Source: an uncultured Candidatus Rokubacteria bacterium
Lineage (GTDB): Bacteria > Methylomirabilota > Methylomirabilia > Rokubacteriales > CSP1-6
Assembly (NCBI GenBank): GCA_963747235.1
Contig: CAVVEU010000013.1
Location: 192,001-256,000, forward strand
Direction: 5' to 3'
DNA length: 64,000 nucleotides
Shown piece after piece: positions 53,595 to 64,000 of the stretch. Every line of letters begins with the position of its first letter. Within the stretch, counting starts at the first letter, position 1. A program made the position numbers and the translations under genes. The notes below the pieces were generated by a model that saw only the letters and a program-made list of their open reading frames with translations, did not search any database and was not told where the DNA came from.

Positions 53595-54373
53595 TGCCGG
53601 GCCGGATGGCCGGCCGCGTGGCCCTCGTCACCGGCGGCGGCGGAGGTATCGGAGAGGCGACCGGCCGGCTGTTCGCGGAGGAAGGCGCCGCGGTCGCATT
53701 GCTCGACACGGACGCGGCCGCGGTGGAGGCGGCCGGCCGCGGGGATCCAGGCCGCGGTACCGGGCGCGCGGGTCGATGGCCCTCACCGGTGACGTCACCC
53801 GGGAGAGCGGAGGCCCGGCGGATCGTCGACGAGACGGTGGCCCGCTGGGGCGCGCTCCACACCCTGGTCAACGTCGCGGGCGTGCGCGTCTACGCGCCGC
53901 TGGCCGACGCGGACGCGACGGACTGGGAGCGCATCATCGGGGTCAACGTGCTCGGCACCGCCCACTGCTGCAAGGCCGCGCTGCCGCGGCTGCGCGCGTC
54001 GGGGCGCGGCACCATCGTCAACGTCTCGTCGGTCTACGGGGTCATGGGCCGGATCGGCATGGGCCAGTACGACACCACCAAGGCGGCGGTGCTCGGCTTC
54101 ACGCGCGCTCTGGCGGTGGAGGAAGCCCCGCACCGCATCCGGGTCAACGCGGTGTGCCCGGGCGGCACCATCACGCCCTATCACATCCGCCGCGCGGCGG
54201 CGCGCGGAGTCTCCGAGGCGGAGATGCGCACCCAGCGCGCGGGCGACAACCTGCTCGGCCGCTGGGCGGAGCCGCGCGAGGTGGCGTACCCGATCCTGTT
54301 CCTCGCCGGGGACGAATCGTCCTTCGTCACGGGCGCCACCCTGATGGTGGACGCCGGCCGCTCCATCTTGTGA
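53594..54373 (+). CDS. Short-chain dehydrogenase/reductase (local frameshifts)
   Basis: [26 protein letters not shown]. Confidence 0.9.
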
Positions 54374-55519
54374 CGTCGCCCGGCGCGGCGGCGCGCCTGC
54401 TCTCGGTGGACGCGCTGCGCGGGCTCACGGTGGCCGCGATGGTGCTGGTGAACAATCCGGGCACGTGGAGCGCGGTGTACGCGCCGCTGCAGCACGCGGC
54501 CTGGCACGGGTGGACGCCGACCGACATGGTCTTCCCGTTCTTCCTCTTCGTGGTCGGCGTCTCCATCCCGCTGGCCCTGGGCCCGCCGCTCGAGCGCGGG
54601 GCGGGGGGCTGTCCGTGCGCGTCGTCCGGCGTGCCGCGGTGATCTTCGCGCTGGGCCTGCTGCTCCACGCGCTGCCCTTCTTTCCGCTCGCCGAGCTCCG
54701 CATCCCGGGGGTGCTCCAGCGCATCGCGGTCTGCTACCTGCTGGCCGCGCTGCTCGTCCTGGCCACCGGCGGCGCGCGGGGCTGGCGGGCCCAGGGGATC
54801 GTCGCGGGCGCGCTGCTGGTGGGCTACTGGCTCGTGATGACGCGGGTCGCCGCGCCCGGCCACGTGGCCGGCGATCTGAGCCCCGAGGGCAATCTCTCCG
54901 GCTACGTGGATCGGCTCGTCCTCGGGACGCGGCACATCTGGCAGGCCACGCGGGTCTACGATCCCGAGGGGATGCTCAGCACGCTGCCCGCCACCGCGAC
55001 CACGCTCCTGGGCGTGCTGGCCGGCCACTGGCTGCGCGCCGGGCAATCGGGCGACCCGGCCTGGCGCGCGGCCCAGCATATCGATCGTCGGCGGGCTCGC
55101 CGTGGCGCGGGCTCGCCGCGACGGCGCTCGGCTGGCTCTGGGGCCTCTCGTTCCCGGTGAACAAGCCCCTGTGGACCAGCTCGTACGCGCTGCTGATGGC
55201 GGGGCTGGCCGCGCTCGCGCTGGCCGCCTGCCACTGGACGATCGAGGTGCGCGGGCGGCGCGGCTGGGCCGGGCCCTTCGCGGTGCTGGGCGTGCACGCG
55301 CTCACGCTGTTCTTCCTGTCGAGCCTGATGGCGAAGCTCCTGTTCATCGTCCGGGTGGGCGCCGGCGGCCCGCGACTCCAGACGTGGCTCTTCGAGCACG
55401 TCTTCGCGCCCTGGGCCGCGCCCGTCAACGCGTCGCTGGCCTACGCGCTGGTGTACGTGCTGCTGTGGTGGGCGCTCATGTGGGCGCTCGACCGGAGCGG
55501 GCTGCGCCTGCGGGTCTGA
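54370..55519 (+). CDS. Heparan-alpha-glucosaminide N-acetyltransferase/NagX-like membrane protein (frameshifted)
   Basis: [57 protein letters not shown]. Confidence 0.9.
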
Positions 55520-56123
55520 CGAGCGGCGGCCGGGCGCGGCTCACGAACGGGTTGCCGCGCAGCCAGAAGCGCCACGGCCGCGCGACCCAGTCCTCCGCGT
55601 AGTCGATGCCGACGCGCGGGCCGGCCGCGATCGCGGCCGGCGAGACGCGGCGGCCCGCCTCGAGCCAGATCCGGTCGCCCAGCAGGTCGGCGCGGTCGAG
55701 GCGGCGGTCGATGCCGAGCGCGATGCAGAGCTTGCCCGGGCCGCTGGTGAGCTCGCCGGGCGCCACGCCGCCGCGCCGGCGGCGCATCAGGTCCACGCCC
55801 TCGACCGGCTCCAGCGCGCGCACCAGCACCGCGTGGGGCACGTCCGCGACATTGGTCACCACGTTGAACTGGTGGTACATGCCGTACACGAAGTAGACGT
55901 ACGCGGTTCCGCCGCGCGCGTACATCGTCTCGGTGCGGCGGGTGCGCCGGCCGCCGTAGGCGTGGGAGGCGCGGTCCTCCGGGCCCCGGTAGGCCTCGGT
56001 CTCCACGATGATCCCGGACACGCGCCGCCCGCCGCGCGTGCGGGCCACCAGGAGCGTGCCCAGAAGTCGCCGGGCGACCGCCACCACGTCGGCGCGCGTG
56101 TAGAACGCGCGCGCCAGCTTCAC
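55476..56123 (-). CDS. mpg: DNA-3-methyladenine glycosylase (MPG/AAG family)
   Basis: GIIVETEAY, DRASHA, AYVYFVYGMY, AVLVRALEP, GPGKLC, GPRVGI, PWRF. Confidence 0.93.
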   Translation of the reverse strand: MKLARAFYTRADVVAVARRLLGTLLVARTRGGRRVSGIIVETEAYRGPEDRASHAYGGRRTRRTETMYARGGTAYVYFVYGMYHQFNVVTNVADVPHAVLVRALEPVEGVDLMRRRRGGVAPGELTSGPGKLCIALGIDRRLDRADLLGDRIWLEAGRRVSPAAIAAGPRVGIDYAEDWVARPWRFWLRGNPFVSRARPPLVRPAGAARSGRAPT

Positions 56124-58132
56124 GGCTTCCGCGCGGAGCGGGCCGCGCCCGCCGCGATCGGGAAGAGACGGTTCTCGCGCATGAGGCGGTCGGTGGTCTC
56201 GTAGAGCGCGAGGAACTCGCGGGTGAGCCGGCTCGCGACCTCCGGGTGCTCGCGGGAGAGATCGGCGGGCGGCATCGCGTCGCCGTCCACCGCGAGCAGC
56301 TCGCCCTGGCCCGCGTTCAGCCGGTAGCGCAGCGCGAAGCCGTCCTTGAAGTAGAACGTCTCCTTCGTGTCGCCGCTGATGATCCCGGCGGTGACCGGGG
56401 GCTCGAAGAGGCTCCGCCCCATGCCCGCGTAGGCGCGGTCGCCCTCGAGCAGCGAGGCGATCGTGGGCAGCACGTCCACCTCGCTCGCGGTCCGGTCCGG
56501 GAGCGCGGGCCAGCGGGCGCGCGCCCGCGCGATCGGGGGCCCCGCCAGGATCAGCGGGAGGCGGAGCCGCTCGAGCCGCTGGGTGCCGAACGTGGGCCCG
56601 GTGTGATCGCCGATGACGACCAGCAGGGTCTGATCGAAGTCGGGCCGCGTCGCCCGCAGCCGGTCCACGAACGCGCGAATGCTGTCGTCGGTGTAGCGGA
56701 AGGTGCCGAGCGGGCCATCGCCGAGCGGCATGGGCGCCTCGGGGGGCACGTGCCACGGCGAATGGCTCGTCCCGGTCATCACGTAGAGGCTGAAGGGCCC
56801 CGGGCTCGCGGTCACCACCCGCGCCGCCTCCAGGAGCAGCGGGCCGTCGTTGATGCCCAGCGGCCCCATCGCGGCCGGTCCGAGCGGCGCCTCGAGCGCG
56901 TCGAAGCCGGCGGCGCGGAAGCCCAGGTTGCGCAGGAAGCTCGTGATCTCGGCGGTGCGGTGGCGGAAGCCGGAGAAGGCGTAGTGCCGGGTTCCGGGCG
57001 CGTTCAGCAGGCGCGGCAGGGAGGCGAAGTAGGTGCCCATGACCGACTGGGAGAGCCGCACGCCGCTGCCGCCCAGGGCGTGGGTCCAGTGCAGGCTGGT
57101 GAGCGTCGCGAAGACCGCGCCGTCCGTGGACGGGAAGCTCTGGTACACCCGCGGGAAGTAGAGGCCCTCGGCCGCGAGCGAGCGGAGGAACGGCAGGACC
57201 GGCCCCTGCGGCTCGTCGTGCTCGAGGAGCGTGGCGCCGAGTCCCTCGACCTGGATCACCACCACGTTCCGGATCCCGAGGCCGCCGGTCCCGCGCAGCG
57301 TGCGCAGGAGCGGATACGGCCGATCGCCCTCGGGGATGCCGAGCAGCCGCTGGGCGAGCGGGAGGGCGTCCGCGGTCTCGAGCCGGTACGGCGGGCGCCC
57401 GCCCGCCATCGCCACCGGCAGGTACTCGCGGATCAGGTCCCAGAGCGGGTTGACCACGGCCTGGTTGAGCACGTAGTCGTCCAGCGCCATCTGGTGGCGG
57501 CTCGCGATCCACGCCATCTCGGTCTTGGCCCGGCCGCCCACCTGCTTGACCGTGATCGGCTGCGCCATCGCGAGCGCGCACAGCGTGAGGGCGCCCAGCG
57601 CGAGGGCGGGGACGTACCAGGGGCGCCAGAGATCGTAGCGGTGAGCGCCGAGCCGCCGGACGTGGCGGGCCGCGAGCGTGACGAAGCTCGCCAGGACGAG
57701 GATCACCAGGGCGACCAGCAGGGGATGCTCCCGGAGGAAGGGACGCAGCGCGATCCAGATGTCGCGGGGCTCGGCCAGGTACGCGAAGAGCATCTCCCAG
57801 AGGTGCTGGTTGCGCTCGCGGACGAAGAGGAGATTGACCGCCGCCACGGTCGCGTTGATCGTGGTGATCACCCAGAGGCCCCCGACCACGGCGCGGCCGC
57901 GCGCGTGCCGCGTGAGCAGCGTGAGGCCGCCGAGGACGAGCAGCTCGAGGCCCAGGAGCGCCAGGTCCAGGCGGAGCCCATGGAGCAGCACGGTGGGCAC
58001 CTCGCCCCACGCGGCGCGCCGGGCGAACCAGGCCACGAACAGGAGGCGGTAGGCGGCCAGGAGGACGAGGTTGAGCGCGACCAGGCCGAGGGCGTGGGCG
58101 GCCAGCCGGCCGGCGCGGGACCCGTCGCTCAT
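56120..58132 (-). CDS. LTA synthase/OpgB-type membrane phosphoglycerol-transferase (sulfatase fold)
   Basis: About 5 N-terminal TM helices, then NVVVIQVEGL (metal Glu), FPSTDG (Thr nucleophile), GTSHSPW, FRYTD, VIGDH, SEVDVLPTI, GMGRSL. Confidence 0.85.
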   Translation of the reverse strand: MSDGSRAGRLAAHALGLVALNLVLLAAYRLLFVAWFARRAAWGEVPTVLLHGLRLDLALLGLELLVLGGLTLLTRHARGRAVVGGLWVITTINATVAAVNLLFVRERNQHLWEMLFAYLAEPRDIWIALRPFLREHPLLVALVILVLASFVTLAARHVRRLGAHRYDLWRPWYVPALALGALTLCALAMAQPITVKQVGGRAKTEMAWIASRHQMALDDYVLNQAVVNPLWDLIREYLPVAMAGGRPPYRLETADALPLAQRLLGIPEGDRPYPLLRTLRGTGGLGIRNVVVIQVEGLGATLLEHDEPQGPVLPFLRSLAAEGLYFPRVYQSFPSTDGAVFATLTSLHWTHALGGSGVRLSQSVMGTYFASLPRLLNAPGTRHYAFSGFRHRTAEITSFLRNLGFRAAGFDALEAPLGPAAMGPLGINDGPLLLEAARVVTASPGPFSLYVMTGTSHSPWHVPPEAPMPLGDGPLGTFRYTDDSIRAFVDRLRATRPDFDQTLLVVIGDHTGPTFGTQRLERLRLPLILAGPPIARARARWPALPDRTASEVDVLPTIASLLEGDRAYAGMGRSLFEPPVTAGIISGDTKETFYFKDGFALRYRLNAGQGELLAVDGDAMPPADLSREHPEVASRLTREFLALYETTDRLMRENRLFPIAAGAARSARKP

Positions 58133-59520
58133 CGAACGCCGAAGAGGGACAGGAAGAACTCCACCCGCTGCCCGAAGGTGGCGGCACTCGCGTCCGCCCA
58201 GATGCTGATCAAGGCGAAGAAGGTCCACACGCCGGCGATCTGCCGGGTCCGCGTCGGCATCGAGACGGGCGTGGCCGCTGCCGCGGCGCCCCGCCGCTGC
58301 TGCTCGCGCCGCATCGAGACGTAGATGCCCAGGCTCAGCAGCAGGCAGTAGAACGAGCGGGCCTCCAGCCAGGGGCGGAGCCCGGCCAGGTCGAGGGTCA
58401 GCAGGAAGGTGTCGTTGAACACGATGTGGTAGTAGAGGTTGCCGAGCCCGGCGGCGGCGAGGGTCGCGGCCAGCATGCGCAGGGCAGGCCGTCCGCGGAA
58501 GCAACGCACGTACGTCGGGAAGAAGAAGAAGTCCACCAGCATCTCCTTGAAATAGTAGTAGTAGCGATTCCAGAACTCGACCAGCGACGGCGCCAGGAGC
58601 GGCTTGTAGGTGTTCCGGAAGACGTTGAAGCCGAAGAGCCGGAGGACGCCCACGACCTCGTGGCCCCGCGCGGCCAGCTTCAGCACGTCCCACACGAGCC
58701 CGGCGTAGAGCGCGCTCCACGCCGCGGCCCACGGGGCCCGCGCGCCCGCGGGCAGGAGCGCTTCGACGCGCGGCACTCCGAGCCCGTACACGCTCCAGGC
58801 CCCCCGCGGCTCCGCGTAGACCAGCCCGGCCATCAGCGCGAGGAGACCGTGGTAGATCGCGGCCAGGGCCAGGAGCTTGAGGCCGGCGAGCTGCGAGCGA
58901 GCGAGGGCCTCCTCGCTCGTGGCCTCGTGCCGCGCCAGATGATCGAGCCCCTTGCCGTAGGGCACGCCGGTGCCGCCGTAGGCGGGATAGAGGTAGAGCA
59001 GATGATCGGAGAAACGGGTGCCCGCCATGCGCCCACGCTGGCCGGAGAGAAGGAGATAGCCCATCCGCCAGAGCAGGAAGGCCAGCGCCAGCACCAGGCC
59101 CGAGAGCGTGAGGGCGACCACGCCTGCACCGTCGGGGACGAGCCAACCCAGGACCACGATCGCCCAGAAGCCGCCGTGCAGCCAGAGCTGGGGCCGGCCG
59201 CGCACGATCGCGGGTAGCGAGGCGAAGCGGCGCGCGGCCAGGTAGACGGCCGCGACCACGACGAGGCAGAGCAGCACGACCAGGGCGCCGGCGAGCGGGC
59301 CGGCCGGGGCCCGCACATCCACCGCGGGAGCCATCTCCTTGAGGGGGCGCCGCACCACCACGTAGAGGGCGCCCAGGGCGAGCAGAGCACGGCGCCGCGG
59401 GGGCGTCAGGCGGGAGAGCAGCGGCCCGGTCCAGGCCTGCCAGCGCGCGACGACGGCGGGGTCCTCGTGGAGTTGCCTCAGTCGTCGCGCCGTTCCCGAG
59501 AAGCCCGCCGCGAGACTCAC
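58129..59520 (-). CDS. MBOAT-family membrane-bound O-acyltransferase (DltB/AlgI-like, divergent)
   Basis: Multi-TM; LRLFGFNVFRNTYKPLLAPSLVEFWNRYYYYFKE (MBOAT GxxxxxNxxxPxxAxSxxEFWxR motif); candidate catalytic His in GNLYYH. Confidence 0.78.
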   Translation of the reverse strand: MSLAAGFSGTARRLRQLHEDPAVVARWQAWTGPLLSRLTPPRRRALLALGALYVVVRRPLKEMAPAVDVRAPAGPLAGALVVLLCLVVVAAVYLAARRFASLPAIVRGRPQLWLHGGFWAIVVLGWLVPDGAGVVALTLSGLVLALAFLLWRMGYLLLSGQRGRMAGTRFSDHLLYLYPAYGGTGVPYGKGLDHLARHEATSEEALARSQLAGLKLLALAAIYHGLLALMAGLVYAEPRGAWSVYGLGVPRVEALLPAGARAPWAAAWSALYAGLVWDVLKLAARGHEVVGVLRLFGFNVFRNTYKPLLAPSLVEFWNRYYYYFKEMLVDFFFFPTYVRCFRGRPALRMLAATLAAAGLGNLYYHIVFNDTFLLTLDLAGLRPWLEARSFYCLLLSLGIYVSMRREQQRRGAAAAATPVSMPTRTRQIAGVWTFFALISIWADASAATFGQRVEFFLSLFGVR

Positions 59521-59768
59521 CCGGCCTCCCGCTCGATCAGGTCGAGGATGCCGCTCACCGAGGTGAGCTGCTCCGGCTCGAGCCCGATGGCCGCGAAGTC
59601 GATCCGGTACTGCTCCTCGAGAAAGGCCACGATCTCGAGCAGGGCCAGGGAATCGATCAGCCCGCTCTCCACGAGGCTGTCGGTCTCCGCGACCGTGTCG
59701 AGCGGCCGGTCGGGCTTCTGGATGGTGCGCAGGAACTCGAGCACGCGCTCCCGGTGGCGCTGGCGCAC
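59517..59768 (-). CDS. Acyl carrier protein (DltC-like)
   Basis: 83 aa, acidic; phosphopantetheine site in SGLIDSLALLEIVAFLEEQYRI. Confidence 0.88.
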   Translation of the reverse strand: MRQRHRERVLEFLRTIQKPDRPLDTVAETDSLVESGLIDSLALLEIVAFLEEQYRIDFAAIGLEPEQLTSVSGILDLIEREAG

Positions 59769-61289
59769 TCAGCGCCCCTGCAGGATGCGGGTGAGATCGA
59801 GCGGCGGGCGGCCCGCGCAGGCCTCCCGCACCGCCTCGCGGCTCACCTTGCCGCGCTCGGAGCGCGGGATCGCGTCCACCAGCCACCACCGCGCGGGCAG
59901 CTTGCCCTCGGCGAGCCGCTCGCGGATCCAGCCGTAGACCTCGCGCACCGCCGCGTCGTCGGGCTCCGTGAGCGCCACCGCGAGGCCCACGTTCTGGCCG
60001 TAGAGCGGATCGTCCACCGCGAAGGCGCAGACGTCGGCGACGCGTCGGCAGCCCTCGGCGGCCGCGTCCACCTCGGCGGGGGAGATCTTGAGGCCGCCCT
60101 TGTTGATCTCGTCGCGCTCGCGGCCGCGCAGATGGAGCCAGCCGCGCTCGTCGAGCAGGCCCAGGTCCCCGGTGGCGAAGCGGCCGTGCTGGATCGCCCG
60201 CCGCGTCAGCTCGTCCTGCCCGAGGTAGCCGCGCATGAGCGCCGGGCTCTCGATCCACACCTGGCCGACCTCGCCCGCCGCGCACGGCGTCGCGTCGGCG
60301 CGCCGCACGTGCAGGATCGCGCCCCACGGCGGGCCGATGAGCCCGTCCGCCGGCGTGAACGGGCCGTCCGAGGTGCCGGCCACCCAGCTCCCGGTCTCGG
60401 TGAGCCCGTAGGTGTTGAAGACCTCCGGCGTGCCCGCCCAGCCGCGGACGCTCTCCCACAGGGTGGCGGGCAGGGGCGCCGAGCCGCAGTGGACGCGCCG
60501 GAGCGTGCCGCCGCGCGGCGGGCGGGCCACCCGGAGCGCGAGCCGCCACATCGCGGGGACCGAGGAGAGGAAGGTGATCCGGTGCTCGTCGATGATCGCG
60601 CCCAGGCGGAGCAGCAGATCGGGCCGGAAGGGCGGCGTGATGAAGAGATCCTGGCCGGCGAGCCAGGGGAAGAGGCTGTTGCAGATGAGCCCGTGGCCGA
60701 AGTGGGTCGGCAGCAGGCACAGCGTGCGGGCGTAGGCCGCGAGGCCGAGCTCGCGCCGCAGCGCGCTCCACCGGGCGGCCAGCGAGGCGTGGGTGTGCAC
60801 GACGCCCTTGGGCACGCCGCTCGAGCCGGAGGTGAAGAGCACGAGGGCGTCGGACGCAGGGCGCGCCGCGTCCTCCGGCAGATCGGCATGCCGATCGGCG
60901 GGCGGGAGCGGCTCGGTCGCGTCGAGCACCGTCGCCCCGGGCGGGAGCGCCCGGGCGATCGCGCCGGCGGTGGCGTCGTCCACCACCGAGAAGCGGGGCG
61001 CGACGGTCTCCACGAGGCGCTCGAGCTCGACGCGGGTCAGCGTCCCGTCCACCGGCACCGCGACGGCGCCCGATCGCCAGAGGGCCAGGAGCTCGGCGAA
61101 GAACTCGAGCCGGTTGCCGAAGTGCAGCAGCACCCGGTCACCGGGGCGGAGCCCGCGACGCCGGTAGCGGGCGGCCCGGGCCGAGACCTCGCGCGTCACG
61201 GCCGGCGCATCCCAGTGCCGACCGGTCAACGGCTCGGTGAGCTGGCCGACGGTCAGCAGGACGCGTGCCTCTTCATGACCGTTTCGCAT
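59769..61289 (-). CDS. Class I adenylate-forming enzyme (acyl-CoA/acyl-ACP ligase)
   Basis: A3 LFTSGSSGVPKG, A4 LPTHFGHG, A5 YGLTETG, A7 TGDLG, A8 GRERDEINKGG, A10 PRSERGK. Confidence 0.92.
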   Translation of the reverse strand: MRNGHEEARVLLTVGQLTEPLTGRHWDAPAVTREVSARAARYRRRGLRPGDRVLLHFGNRLEFFAELLALWRSGAVAVPVDGTLTRVELERLVETVAPRFSVVDDATAGAIARALPPGATVLDATEPLPPADRHADLPEDAARPASDALVLFTSGSSGVPKGVVHTHASLAARWSALRRELGLAAYARTLCLLPTHFGHGLICNSLFPWLAGQDLFITPPFRPDLLLRLGAIIDEHRITFLSSVPAMWRLALRVARPPRGGTLRRVHCGSAPLPATLWESVRGWAGTPEVFNTYGLTETGSWVAGTSDGPFTPADGLIGPPWGAILHVRRADATPCAAGEVGQVWIESPALMRGYLGQDELTRRAIQHGRFATGDLGLLDERGWLHLRGRERDEINKGGLKISPAEVDAAAEGCRRVADVCAFAVDDPLYGQNVGLAVALTEPDDAAVREVYGWIRERLAEGKLPARWWLVDAIPRSERGKVSREAVREACAGRPPLDLTRILQGR

Positions 61290-61405
61290 GATACCGCGAG
61301 GGGCGCGCTGGGGGAAAACACCACGGGCGCGGCCGAGAAGGGGCCGCGCCCGTGATCGACGCCGGCAGAGCTACCCGGCGCCGGCTGCCGCGTCAGGCCG
61401 CCGCG

Positions 61406-61627
61406 CTAGCGTCGCGCTCCCACCACGAGCAGGACCACCCCGCCGGCCAGCGCCAGCCCGCCCAGGATCGGCGGAAGCGGGATCGTGTGCTTCTTGTCGG
61501 CGGTCGCCTTGATGGGGCCGAGATCGATGATCTTCTCCCGCGTGGTGTAGGTGATCCCCTGGTAGGCCAGGGACACCACCCCGATGGCGATCAGCACGAT
61601 GGCGATGATGAGCACTCCGCTCTTCAT
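61406..61627 (-). CDS. Small two-TM membrane protein (DUF3185-like)
   Basis: TM-YQGITYTTREKIIDLGPIKAT...TIPLPP-TM; RBS GAGGA. Confidence 0.8.
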   Translation of the reverse strand: MKSGVLIIAIVLIAIGVVSLAYQGITYTTREKIIDLGPIKATADKKHTIPLPPILGGLALAGGVVLLVVGARR

Positions 61628-61640
61628 ACGATGTCCTCTC

Positions 61641-62243
61641 TCAGAAGCGGGCGGTGAAGCGCCCGGCTTTGCTGTCCTTGTGGCGCTGCTCGACGACTTC
61701 CCAGTTCACGTTCTCGAGGAAGGCCTCGATGTAGTCCTCCCGGCCTCCCGCCCCGTGGTCCACCATGAAGGCGTGCTCGAAGACGTCGAGCACGACGACC
61801 GGATTGAAGCCGGCCGGGTGGCCCTGCTCGTGGCTCGACACCCACCAGTTGAAGAGGCCGCCGGTGGCGGGATCGCGGTAGAGGATCGCCCAGCCGACGC
61901 CGCGCATGCCGCCGGTCTTGGCGAAGTCCTCGCGCCAGGCGCCCACCGAGCCCCAGGCGGCGCCCAGGTCCACCGAGAGATCGCTGCCCGGAGAGAGCTT
62001 GGAGCCCCCGGCGAGGTTGCCGAAGTAGTACTCGTGCAGCACCATGCCGTCGACCTCGAAGCCGAGCCGCCGCTTCAGCTCGGCCCACACCGGGGTGCCG
62101 GGCTCGGCCTTCGCGGCGCCGTCGAGGAGGCCGTTCGCGTTCTTGACGTAGCCCTCGTAGAGCTTCCAGTGCTGGTCGATCTGATCGTCGGAGATGCCCG
62201 TGAGCGCCCTCGGCTTGAGATGATCCTGGACTTTATAGTTCAT
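61641..62243 (-). CDS. Fe/Mn superoxide dismutase family (ChrC-like)
   Basis: QHWKLYEGYV, LHEYYFGNL, GVGWAIL, LDVFEHAF, YIEAFLENVNW. Confidence 0.9.
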   Translation of the reverse strand: MNYKVQDHLKPRALTGISDDQIDQHWKLYEGYVKNANGLLDGAAKAEPGTPVWAELKRRLGFEVDGMVLHEYYFGNLAGGSKLSPGSDLSVDLGAAWGSVGAWREDFAKTGGMRGVGWAILYRDPATGGLFNWWVSSHEQGHPAGFNPVVVLDVFEHAFMVDHGAGGREDYIEAFLENVNWEVVEQRHKDSKAGRFTARF

Positions 62244-62258
62244 GGCGGCGCTCCGTCG

Positions 62259-62408
62259 CTAGATCGGCCGTCGACCCTGGATGACCCGGATCAGGACCAC
62301 CGCGATGGCGATCAGCAGCAAGAGGTGGATGAAGCCGCCGAGCGTGTAAGAAGTGACCAGGCCCACCGCCCAGAGCACCAGCAGGATCACGAAGATCGTC
62401 CACAGCAT
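62259..62408 (-). CDS. lmo0937-family small membrane protein (49 aa)
   Basis: MLWTIFVILLVLWAVGLVTSYTLGGFIHLLLLIAIAVVLIRVIQGRRPI*; RBS GGGAGG; below the ORF-track cutoff. Confidence 0.9.
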   Translation of the reverse strand: MLWTIFVILLVLWAVGLVTSYTLGGFIHLLLLIAIAVVLIRVIQGRRPI

Positions 62409-62472
62409 GTGAGTCGCCCTCCCATGTACCGCGAGTAGGAATTCTCGAGTTCAGTTCGTGCGCGTCTCATAC

Positions 62473-62487
62473 GCACGCCACGTGCCA
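62473..62487 (-). promoter_or_regulatory. sigma54-like promoter for the lmo0937/SOD unit
   Basis: Minus strand TGGCAC-GTGGC-GTGC (GG-N10-GC; -12 element imperfect). Confidence 0.55.
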
Positions 62488-62626
62488 CCGGGGTCGGCGT
62501 GGCCGAAGTGCGCGATTCCGCGATGGAGAAGTCGCGCTGATGCGGCGCGCGTGGGGACGCGGCGACGCGGGGGCGGGTCAAGATTACCGAGTAGAACGGT
62601 TCCGATCGCGGGCGATCGCGCGCACG

Positions 62627-62641
62627 TGGCATGTCACTTGC
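62627..62641 (+). promoter_or_regulatory. sigma54 (-24/-12) promoter
   Basis: TGGCAT-GTCAC-TTGC, 15 nt before ATG 62657. Confidence 0.62.
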
Positions 62642-62656
62642 GACATTTCAGGCGTC

Positions 62657-62876
62657 ATGAGAACTCCACGCCCGTTGCAGATGGAGAATCTGATCCCGAT
62701 GGCGGCGCGAGCGACGATAGGATTCGACCCGCGCGATGACGACGGCGCTGGGCGCCCTGGTCCTCGTGACGAGCCTGGTGCCGGTGTTCGCGGTGTGCAT
62801 GGCCGCGCTCGGCGCGCGGCAGCCCGACCGCGGGCGACTCAGGCGCTCGTCGGCGTCCGCCCGAGAATCCGCCTGA
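62657..62876 (+). CDS. Putative small single-TM protein (probable frameshift near 62730)
   Basis: MRTPRPLQMENLIPMAARATIGFDP then, in another frame, MTTALGALVLVTSLVPVFAVCMAALGARQPDRGRLRRSSASARESA*; downstream of a sigma54 box. Confidence 0.4.
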
Positions 62877-64000
62877 TCCCGGCCAGCGGGATCGCGACCC
62901 AGTCGGGGCGGTTGTCGAGCTCGTAGCGGAGCTCGTAGGCCGCCTTCTGCAGCTCGAACGGGGCGCACCGCCGAGAGCAGCGCGCCGGCGGTCGCCGGGA
63001 CGAGCGGCGTCGGGCTCCGGGTCACCTCGCGCGAGATACCCGGCCAGGAAGGCGTCGCGGGCCTGCGCCTCCCAGGCGGTGAGGGCCACGAGGGCCGCCG
63101 CCCGCTCGGGTTCCGGCCGGCGGAAGGCGACCGCGTGCGCCGCGTAGTCCAGGGAGCGCAGCATGCCCGCCACGTCGCGCAGGGCCGGCTGCTTCCGGCG
63201 GCGCTCGGCCAGCGGCCGGGCCGGCTCGCCCTCGAAGTCGATGATCACGAAGCCGTCGGCGGTCTTGAGCACCTGGCCGAGATGGTAGTCGCCGTGGACG
63301 CGGATCTTCGCGGTCGCCCCCGCGAGCCGGTCGAGCATCGCGAGCGCCCGGGCCACCGCGTCCGTCATGTGCGCGGCGTCGCCCGTGAGCTGCGCGCCGA
63401 GCACGGGGGCCGCCAGCTCGCGCGCGATCTCGCCGGCCCACCCCGCGACGTCGTCGCGGCCGACGGGCTCGGGGCGGAAGTCGGCGTCGCGGTCGTCGGA
63501 GGCCAGCGCGGCGTGCAGGCCCCCGGTGATCGCGCCCAGGCGGCGCACGTCTTCCACGAGCGGATCCGGCACGAGCGGATCGGGCCGGCGCGCGATGTCC
63601 GCGCCGCGTCCCGCGAGCGTCGAGACCACGTGGGTCCATCCGTCCCCGGTATTCGGCACGAACTCCTGGAGCACCGCGAGCGTCGCGGGCTCGCCCGCCC
63701 CGGCGTACTCCACCCAGCCCGCGAGCCGCGGCACGTGGCGGAAGGCGGTGCGGGTGGTGAGGAAGCGCGTGATCTCGAGATCGGGGTTCAGGCCGGGCTG
63801 GGGCCGGCGCAGCGACTTCAGCACGAGATCGCCGACCACGACGGAGGTATTGCTCTGCTCGCCGGTGAGGCGCCGCGCGGCCAGCGCGTCCGGATCGGCC
63901 GGAAACGCCCAGCCCGTGGTGGGCCGGAAGGCGAAGCGGCCGTGGCGGCCGTCGGCCGAGCGGCCGGCGGCGATGGCGGCGAGCACGCGGCGGCCGAAGC
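62839..64000 (-). CDS. Maltokinase (Mak/Pep2)-like kinase, 5' end outside the window, frameshifted near the 3' end
   Basis: GEQSNTSV, NPDLEITRFL, IRVHGDYHLGQVL, IIDFEGEP, RDVAGMLRSLDYA, KAAYELRYELDNRPDW. Confidence 0.9.

Follow-up and report, generated by a model that had tools for sequence, protein, structure and literature searches.

In a 64,000-nucleotide stretch of the genome of a Candidatus Rokubacteria soil bacterium (the window; GenBank assembly GCA_963747235.1, contig CAVVEU010000013.1, positions 192,001 to 256,000 of the forward strand; 72% G+C), four genes at 56120–61289 constitute a real variant of carrier-protein-dependent envelope acylation, of which no description was found in the literature searched. 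Close relatives of the window proteins are encoded in Methylomirabilota/Rokubacteria assemblies. Our preferred reading, to which we give about an even chance, is a carrier-protein-dependent trans-membrane acyl route to which, in this lineage, a phospholipid head-group transferase is coupled. Its general part, the export of a non-amino acyl group by a carrier-fed protein with a membrane-bound O-acyltransferase (MBOAT) fold, has good support from the fold, the residues, and the conserved neighbourhood. Coupling to the LtaS-type transferase is plausible and optional, and we infer the acid, the acceptor, and the order of the steps. The four open reading frames (ORFs) are intact, co-oriented, and free of internal stops:

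59769–61289, minus strand: ANL carboxylic acid ligase, 506 aa (PF00501 and PF13193; class I of the cassette family)
59517–59768, minus strand: acyl carrier protein, 83 aa, with the phosphopantetheine-site Ser40 in GLIDSL (near-cut-off PF00550)
58129–59520, minus strand: MBOAT-fold membrane protein, 463 aa, without a Pfam match (predicted from its model; DltB is the closest structure)
56120–58132, minus strand: LtaS-type membrane transferase of the alkaline-phosphatase/sulfatase fold, 670 aa (predicted from PF00884, fold, and residues)

The ligase TGA directly abuts the carrier GTG at 59769/59768, the carrier and MBOAT-like genes overlap by GTGA at 59517–59520, and the MBOAT-like and LtaS-type genes overlap by ATGA at 58129–58132. 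These junctions read exactly as described in a first-pass annotation of this DNA, and the motifs quoted there were all found: the ligase has LPTHFGHG, the membrane protein FWNRYYYYF, and the transferase QVEG, PSTD, SHSP, and GDH. The same annotation had pointed to intact frames in indel-rich surroundings. When a relative with 90% identity (L003) was compared, only two indels were found in the cassette, one of 12 nt at 60892 and one of 3 nt at 58279, both of which keep the frame, and the flanks contained several 1-nt indels (62966 and 63030; 53734–53810; 55107), as had been claimed. Pairwise ratios of nonsynonymous to synonymous substitution rates (dN/dS) were 0.05–0.34 for the four cassette genes and similar, 0.19–0.31, for a flanking glycosylase gene. 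As judged from these sequences, the four genes are real and under purifying selection. The dS of the MBOAT-like gene against two relatives (L004 and L005) was 0.66–0.68, and that of the ligase, carrier, and transferase genes was about twofold lower (0.28–0.44), which hints at allele replacement or recombination inside the cassette.

A phmmer search over 1.84 billion representatives (50% identity level; E up to 0.001) yielded 692 representatives of the MBOAT-like family. Gene neighbourhoods were counted by ORF clustering in 71 loci fetched from species genomes, many of which end at contig ends:

MBOAT-like gene: 68 of 71 loci
Ligase beside the MBOAT-like gene: 53 of 71 loci
Carrier protein beside the MBOAT-like gene: 50 of 71 loci
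LtaS-type gene beside the MBOAT-like gene: 19 of 71 loci
Isocitrate lyase/phosphoenolpyruvate mutase (ICL/PEP-mutase)-family gene (PF13714; PrpB-like, below cut-off): 20 of 71 loci
CptA/EptA-type phosphoethanolamine transferase: 6 of 71 loci

The trio of ligase, carrier, and MBOAT-like genes was found, in variable gene order, in Methylomirabilota, Binatia, Alpha-, Beta-, Gamma-, and Deltaproteobacteria, Myxococcota, and others, with the MBOAT-like gene as the one invariant partner of ligase and carrier. The suggestion that all four genes are conserved together was upheld for the trio, which recurs across many diderm phyla, but not for the LtaS-type gene. Because the latter was present in only 19 of the 71 loci, with CptA/EptA-type genes in 6 and the lyase in 20, the LtaS-type enzyme is a recurrent optional partner of the trio and not a general DltD substitute; the idea that it takes DltD's place fails as a general rule. 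Other neighbours included a heptosyltransferase and a diacylglycerol kinase (L029), PAP2 (L033 and L069), and ArnT-like PMT_2 (L011 and L047), and these genes point, without proof, to the periplasmic face and to acceptors of the lipopolysaccharide (LPS) type. One locus (L053) with a Bifidobacterium label carried the full set of MBOAT-like, ligase, carrier, lyase, and LtaS-type genes together with a GT87 glycosyltransferase; if correctly binned, this locus would be an exception in a monoderm.

The third protein of the cassette matched no Pfam family, and PF03062 was matched by 0 of its 62 aligned relatives. Its similarity to DltB was weak and at the motif level (E 0.004 in NCBIfam; E 0.0018 with 6BUG), and it scored 16.4 bits against the DltB equivalog TIGR04091, for which 375 bits are needed. 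An AlphaFold2 model based on 62 sequences had a mean predicted local distance difference test (pLDDT) value of 94.3. With this model, Foldseek returned DltB (8JEM/6BUG) first, with E values of 3e-6 to 1e-5 and template modelling (TM) scores of 0.49–0.62, followed by HHAT, PORCN, LPCAT3, MBOAT7, DGAT1, and ACAT; the matches listed, ranks 1–25 without rank 20, were all MBOAT entries. Comparison by hhalign with the canonical MBOAT of the host genome gave an E value of 3.8e-6 over 71 columns, pairing GH287..R294..G297..N303..P307..FWNR319 with DFSGYSD..R..G..N..P..FWRR, and a global hhalign against 12 canonical MBOATs of related genomes gave 4e-6 over 401 columns. Residues conserved in the family were GH287, R294, RNT302-304, FWNR316-319, Y323-F-K-E326, GN360-361, and H365; Y323, K325, and E326 were invariant in the 62 sequences, and Tyr321 stands at the first His of FWxRWH. 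His365 was retained in 61 of the 62 sequences and lies 44 residues past FWNRYY, compared with 40 for the corresponding distance in the genome's canonical MBOAT. In the ESM Atlas, a cluster with a feature score of 0.98 has been labelled automatically as 'MBOAT family protein' and carries no Pfam family, so the MBOAT fold has already been guessed by some pipelines. On the strength of the model, the third protein is assigned an MBOAT fold that escapes Pfam and has DltB as its closest solved structure. An MBOAT at 58129–59520, and with it the ligase, carrier, and MBOAT logic of a Dlt-like system, had been proposed from the start, and the model, the Foldseek and hhalign matches, and the near-invariant His365 support this logic. 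A complex prediction for the MBOAT-like protein and residues 165–670 of the LtaS-type protein scored 0.00 and was counted neither way.

PMC12148441 describes bacterial MBOAT pathways in which the acyl group is transferred to the invariant Tyr of a C-terminal FXYXXF motif, located either on the MBOAT or on the microprotein DltX, and from this Tyr to an SGNH protein. All 12 canonical MBOATs of the host and related genomes end in F-[LIV]-Y-x-x-F. In the MBOAT-like family, the C-terminus reads R-x-x-F-x-L-S-L-F-G and the place of the tyrosine is taken by Leu, Phe, or Ala; a C-terminal FXYXXF was absent from this family, Tyr being outside the five commonest residues at column 457 of the 62 sequences. 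We considered F-x-L-x-L-F-G as a homologue of FXYXXF and rejected it, since the global hhalign puts the family C-terminus upstream of the canonical motif. No DltX-type small ORF with FXYXXF was found in the window region or the 71 loci, the rest of the genome not having been searched; the scan covered 18,574 open segments of these loci, the window region, and a control locus (L073), recovered the positive control, and gave five chance-like matches. DltD (PF04914) was unmatched in the host genome, which is 88% complete and in which control families were matched, and 0 of 104 flanking ORFs of related loci matched DltD or SGNH/GDSL families, in line with the initial claim that these partners are absent. 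At the control locus (L073 = G000:C24:442745-446395), the one canonical MBOAT of the host genome (PF03062, 469 aa) ends in FLYFQF and is preceded on its 5′ side by a fatty-acid desaturase gene; an ORF of about 400 aa without a Pfam match on the 3′ side may encode its SGNH-like partner.

The ligase scored 204 bits with PF00501 and 35 bits with PF13193, and no NCBIfam model reached its cut-off (for example, the FadD7 family, 247 bits versus 650). Its nearest solved chains were malonyl-CoA synthetase (4GXQ/4FUQ), oxalate-CoA ligase (5IE0), and FadD13. Among 46 aligned ligases adjoining MBOAT-like relatives, 39, including the window ligase and representing several phyla, shared the pocket motif LPTHFGHGLICN; six from divergent cassettes (L010, L042, L058, L061, L067, and L071) carried F-D-x-S and YGPTE of the nonribosomal peptide synthetase (NRPS) type, and one was MatB-like and stood beside a malonyl-CoA decarboxylase gene. 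The ANL hallmarks were kept, namely the TSGS(S/T)GxPKG P-loop and the A10 Lys481 (45 of 46). In an alignment to AtAAE3, the A4 segment of the window ligase reads T195-H-F-G198-H-G, with Gly198 opposite Val215, and THFGHG was present in 39 of the 46 ligases. We take Gly198 to occupy the position of the amino-binding Asp in the A4 motif of NRPS/DltA. The ligase is thus predicted from sequence to activate a carboxylic acid without an alpha-amino group and to load it onto the carrier protein, and the non-amino-acid chemistry suggested at first was borne out to this extent, only the six divergent relatives carrying F-D-x-S. Because 39 of the 46 ligases share LPTHFGHGLICN but six carry F-D-x-S/YGPTE, the cassette family appears to have two versions, an amino-acid type and a non-amino-acid type, with the window belonging to the second. 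The six divergent loci would represent aminoacyl, more Dlt-like versions of the MBOAT-like family. One of them, with a Deltaproteobacteria label (L010:4885-10823), carries four tandem MBOAT-like paralogues with an NRPS-type ligase and a carrier gene on one side and an LtaS-type gene on the other.

The ICL/PEP-mutase-family lyase gene lies 3′ of the carrier gene in its 20 loci, where the ligases have the same pocket motif, LPTHFGHGLICN. A cassette-type lyase of this family was sought in the host genome and rejected: the best match was 31% identical and on another contig, and the window variant is without the lyase. An aconitase B gene flanks the cassette in five Betaproteobacteria-labelled loci (L039, L043, L044, L046, and L068), and an isocitrate/isopropylmalate dehydrogenase gene does so in L037; together with the lyase, they are a weak hint of a link to di- or tricarboxylic acids, the loci being closely related.

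A different use of the same proteins was considered, in which the MBOAT-like protein takes a fatty or medium-chain acid from the carrier and attaches it directly to a membrane lipid, so that the cassette would serve lipid remodelling and not polymer decoration; diacylglycerol freed by LtaS/EptA-type enzymes, or a lysolipid, would be the candidate lipid. It agrees with the absence of a tyrosine shuttle motif and of an SGNH partner, with the lipid-acylating eukaryotic MBOATs (LPCAT3, DGAT1, and ACAT) among the fold matches, with the small residues G198, G269, and G295 that line the aligned acyl pocket, and with the diacylglycerol kinase neighbour in L029. The best-named ligase families, all below cut-off, are moreover fatty-acid ligases, which leaves room for a fatty acyl substrate. 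We nevertheless regard lipid remodelling as quite unlikely, because the lyase beside the carrier gene belongs to a family that makes or cleaves small acids, because the nearest solved ligases act on malonate and oxalate, and because the best structural match of the membrane protein is DltB and not a lipid MBOAT.

The 83-aa protein scored 19.4 bits with PF00550, slightly under the cut-off of 20.8, and gave weak NCBIfam matches to several acyl carrier proteins (ACPs) and to DltC, all below cut-off (DltC, 19.8 bits versus 68). Ser40, Asp39, and Leu41 were invariant in 51 of 51 carriers neighbouring the MBOAT-like gene. Identity with the ACP of the OlsH/OlsI ornithine-lipid pathway was examined and dropped (NCBIfam, 30.9 bits versus 130); this pathway employs a GH3-like enzyme, according to PMC12493201. 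The sequence thus identifies the protein as a probable carrier protein that is not a DltC orthologue by the DltC model. Ligase and carrier might instead start a cytoplasmic secondary-metabolite or lipid pathway, the membrane protein then being no envelope acyltransferase. Stand-alone ligase-carrier pairs are common in natural-product clusters, and the best NCBIfam matches of the carrier, although below cut-off, are biosynthetic ACPs. Such a pathway is, however, very improbable here, since no condensation, ketosynthase, or thioesterase genes were present among the flanking ORFs scanned and since the MBOAT-fold protein is the sole invariant partner of ligase and carrier.

The fourth protein matched PF00884 at 5.8e-22, and its close relatives are named 'LTA synthase family protein' or 'MdoB-like' in public sources. 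In 27 sequences, E296, H457, D509, and H510 were invariant and T336 was nearly invariant. By motif and by comparison with the known LtaS residues, E296 and D509/H510 are presumably the metal ligands and T336 the nucleophile. The model (pLDDT 87.1) has helices at residues 6–36, 39–73, 79–107, 122–160, and 173–188, followed by an extracytoplasmic alpha/beta domain. Its best solved matches were 3LXQ, LtaS of Listeria, Bacillus, and Staphylococcus (4UOR/2W8D/2W5Q), LtaP, and then PbgA/YejM, with target-normalised TM scores of 0.64–0.81 to 3LXQ and LtaS. The LtaS equivalog NF053595 was scored at only 25.3 bits versus 970, and the OpgB models PRK12363/PRK03776 were unmatched. By modelled fold and predicted active site, the transferase is of LtaS type, and we infer from the same fold and residues that it would transfer phosphoglycerol. 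Glucans of the osmoregulated periplasmic glucan (OPG) type were considered as the acceptor and are unlikely, OpgG/MdoG not having been found in the 88%-complete host genome. LpxC is present in this genome, which supports the diderm host assumed at the outset.

It had also been put forward that the sulfatase-fold protein acts as the outer acyl relay, that is, as a DltD replacement whose Thr336 would receive the acyl group before handing it on to the acceptor. Nothing speaks for such a role but the place of its gene in the operon, immediately behind the MBOAT-like gene, and the lack of DltD/SGNH, and we found no evidence of it. The complete LtaS phosphotransfer site (metal ligands, Thr, and His) is conserved and fits phospho-head-group chemistry, most related cassettes lack a sulfatase-fold gene, and in one congener (G127, see below) the gene persists without the MBOAT. 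To our knowledge, moreover, no acyl-relay role is known for the sulfatase fold. This relay is thus highly unlikely.

Under the preferred reading, a trans-membrane acyl route coupled to a head-group transferase, the following steps are proposed. Judging from its family, the ligase would adenylate an acid without an alpha-amino group, probably small and possibly dicarboxylic, and thioesterify it to the phosphopantetheine arm on carrier Ser40. The loaded carrier would then dock at the cytoplasmic face of the MBOAT-fold protein in the inner membrane, where, as the fold and the conserved histidine suggest, His365 could serve as the catalytic base and the acyl group could pass through the pore to a nucleophile at the outer face. 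Because there is no cis tyrosine shuttle, no DltX-like microprotein, and no SGNH/DltD partner, direct transfer to a membrane-embedded or membrane-proximal acceptor is proposed, as in eukaryotic MBOATs. Finally, the fold, residues, and neighbourhood of the LtaS-type enzyme suggest that its Thr336 and metal site transfer a phospho-head group to the same envelope molecule. The head group would most likely be glycerol phosphate taken from phosphatidylglycerol, and the molecule most plausibly LPS or another glycolipid; the transfer would create or accompany the acylated site. In lipoteichoic acid, analogously, D-alanine esterifies glycerol phosphate.

The history of the site bears on the last of these steps. 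The MBOAT-like protein was found in 4 of 151 genomes of the phylum, all of one genus. In this genus, the site is bordered by a superoxide dismutase gene and a small membrane-protein gene on one side and by a glycosylase gene on the other, and it exists in at least four states. The features next to the cassette in the window are as follows:

61320–61356, minus strand: possible terminator hairpin of the upstream unit (RNA fold of 61290–61405, z = −2.0)
55476–56123, minus strand: 3-methyladenine DNA glycosylase gene (TIGR00567, 218 bits)

Four genomes, the host (G000), G019, G033, and G123, have the full cassette, and in each of them the LtaS-type gene comes immediately after the MBOAT-like gene. 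In G127, window positions 58207–59767 are missing, corresponding to the carrier gene and the MBOAT-like gene except its last 26 codons. In G070, 56246–61234 are missing and a scar is left that consists of some 55 nt from the ligase gene and some 125 nt from the transferase gene, and in G082, 56125–61398 are missing. The distinct deletion states indicate that the site held the cassette ancestrally and that independent deletions are now removing it. The cassette is accessory, patchy in the phylum and being deleted in congeners.

Several observations weigh against the coupled route. In G127, the ligase and LtaS-type genes have stayed intact after the loss of the carrier and MBOAT-like genes, with dN/dS of 0.18 and 0.28, so the LtaS-type enzyme does not need the MBOAT and has its own function. 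The LtaS-type gene is missing from 52 of the 71 related loci; in a table of 31 loci that have 5 kb or more on either side, drawn up without L002–L005, the ligase was found in 27, the carrier in 26, the lyase in 12, and the LtaS-type gene in 7. The LtaS-type protein is only 18–24% identical to LtaS-type partners of other phyla, compared with 43–50% for the MBOAT-like protein, and partners of different phyla may have been recruited independently. The GTG of the glycosylase gene overlaps the LtaS-type TGA (GTGA, 56120–56123) in the same 4-base style as the cassette junctions; as the glycosylase is unrelated, 4-base overlaps in this genome are by themselves no mark of functional partnership. On the acyl side, the fatty-acid names among the below-cut-off ligase matches would also allow a fatty acyl substrate, and hhalign does not assign His365 to one or the other of the two canonical histidines. 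PMC8905533 gives His319 as the oxalate-specific residue of AtAAE3; this residue aligns with Ser301 of the ligase, and oxalate was rejected as a substrate, there being no support for a pocket of the oxalyl-CoA-synthetase type.

The persistence of the LtaS-type gene in G127, its absence from most related loci, the low identity of its counterparts in other phyla, and the overlap style of the glycosylase gene would all be expected if the trio were a Dlt-like acylation module and the LtaS-type gene a mere operon neighbour with an independent envelope function and another target. We consider this somewhat unlikely, in view of the recurrence of the pair. LtaS-type genes recur beside the MBOAT-like gene in several phyla and in three gene orders: ligase-carrier-MBOAT-LtaS (the window and loci with Binatia and Deltaproteobacteria labels), MBOAT-ligase-carrier-LtaS (Gammaproteobacteria), and MBOAT-LtaS alone, where ligase and carrier sit at a second MBOAT locus (L020 with L044, and L040 with L041). 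In a similar position, CptA/EptA-type transferases occur in six further loci, and the pair is adjacent in all four cassette-bearing genomes of the genus.

Comparison with known systems places the cassette closest to the Dlt pathway of Firmicutes (DltA, DltC, DltB, DltX, and DltD), which D-alanylates LtaS-made lipoteichoic acid. In both, an adenylating enzyme, a small phosphopantetheinyl carrier, and an MBOAT are encoded together, with DltB as the best solved match of the window protein, and the LtaS-type enzyme encoded alongside in the window recalls the LtaS-then-Dlt logic. Unlike DltA, however, the window ligase is without the amino-binding Asp and resembles malonate and oxalate ligases; unlike DltB, the MBOAT-like protein is not matched by the DltB models of Pfam and TIGR and has Tyr at the first His of FWxRWH; and no DltX motif and no DltD were found in a host that is diderm with LpxC. 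With the MBOAT-SGNH acetylation pairs (PatA/PatB; AlgI, WssH, and related proteins), the cassette shares the MBOAT fold, a conserved histidine, a predicted extracytoplasmic target, and a diderm host. It differs from them in that its donor would be a carrier protein, whereas theirs is acyl-CoA, and in that its family is without the C-terminal tyrosine motif, which 12 of 12 canonical MBOATs have, and no SGNH partner was found. The transferase has the architecture of LtaS/LtaP, OpgB (MdoB), and PbgA/YejM, with five N-terminal helices, an alkaline-phosphatase-fold domain, a Thr nucleophile, and metal ligands, but it is far under the LtaS equivalog cut-off, and OpgG was not found in the host genome. 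In Vibrio cholerae, AlmEFG adds glycine to lipid A, with AlmG as a cytoplasmic-face LpxL-type acyltransferase. This system likewise uses a DltA-like ligase and a carrier to modify a Gram-negative envelope; AlmG, however, is no MBOAT, and what it transfers is an amino acid.

Surface charge, resistance to antimicrobial peptides, and recognition by hosts and phages are set by the acylation of envelope polymers. Of the two solutions that are understood, one combines an MBOAT, a tyrosine shuttle, and an SGNH enzyme, and the other is AT3-SGNH. The widespread family described here brings together a carrier protein as donor and an MBOAT in which neither downstream relay element is present. We tentatively envisage, while considering it unlikely in this full form, a third mechanistic class, in which a carrier-fed MBOAT without acyl-tyrosine shuttle or SGNH protein, together with LtaS/CptA/EptA transferases, would put an acylated phospho-head group on LPS or an outer-envelope glycolipid of diderms; the acyl group would come from a small dicarboxylic acid and form a half-ester of the succinyl, malonyl, or oxalyl type, and the product would be a teichoic-acid-like decoration. 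The identity of the acid and the acceptor would reveal a new envelope modification in many environmental diderms and would show how an MBOAT finishes the transfer on its own. The carriers of the cassette include Accumulibacter and methylotroph lineages, relevant to wastewater and soil, and in the host genus, the natural deletion alleles make it easy to compare genomes with and without the cassette.

Around the cassette, a 15-bp GC-rich hairpin followed by GUGUUUU lies at 61320–61356, about 30 nt 5′ of the ligase ATG and after the small membrane-protein gene. It is possibly the terminator of the upstream unit of superoxide dismutase and small membrane-protein genes, and it was not called by a simple terminator scan. 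A sigma-70 promoter and terminator scan gave nothing useful, so that the cassette promoter was not located by it, and a search for riboswitches or other RNA motifs upstream gave no Rfam match at E ≤1 across 55000–62700. The glycosylase gene is probably co-transcribed with the cassette, because its GTG overlaps the LtaS-type stop; one database protein (P0382) joins PF02245 to a sulfatase domain, probably through a merged gene call. One of the flanking single-base indels falls in a maltokinase-like ORF (62655–63986), whose C-terminal 130 residues look out of frame. Two MBOAT-like paralogues were found in Betaproteobacteria-labelled assemblies (L024/L034, L026/L046, L038/L043, and L039/L065), one accompanied by ligase and carrier genes and the other alone beside a major facilitator superfamily transporter gene.

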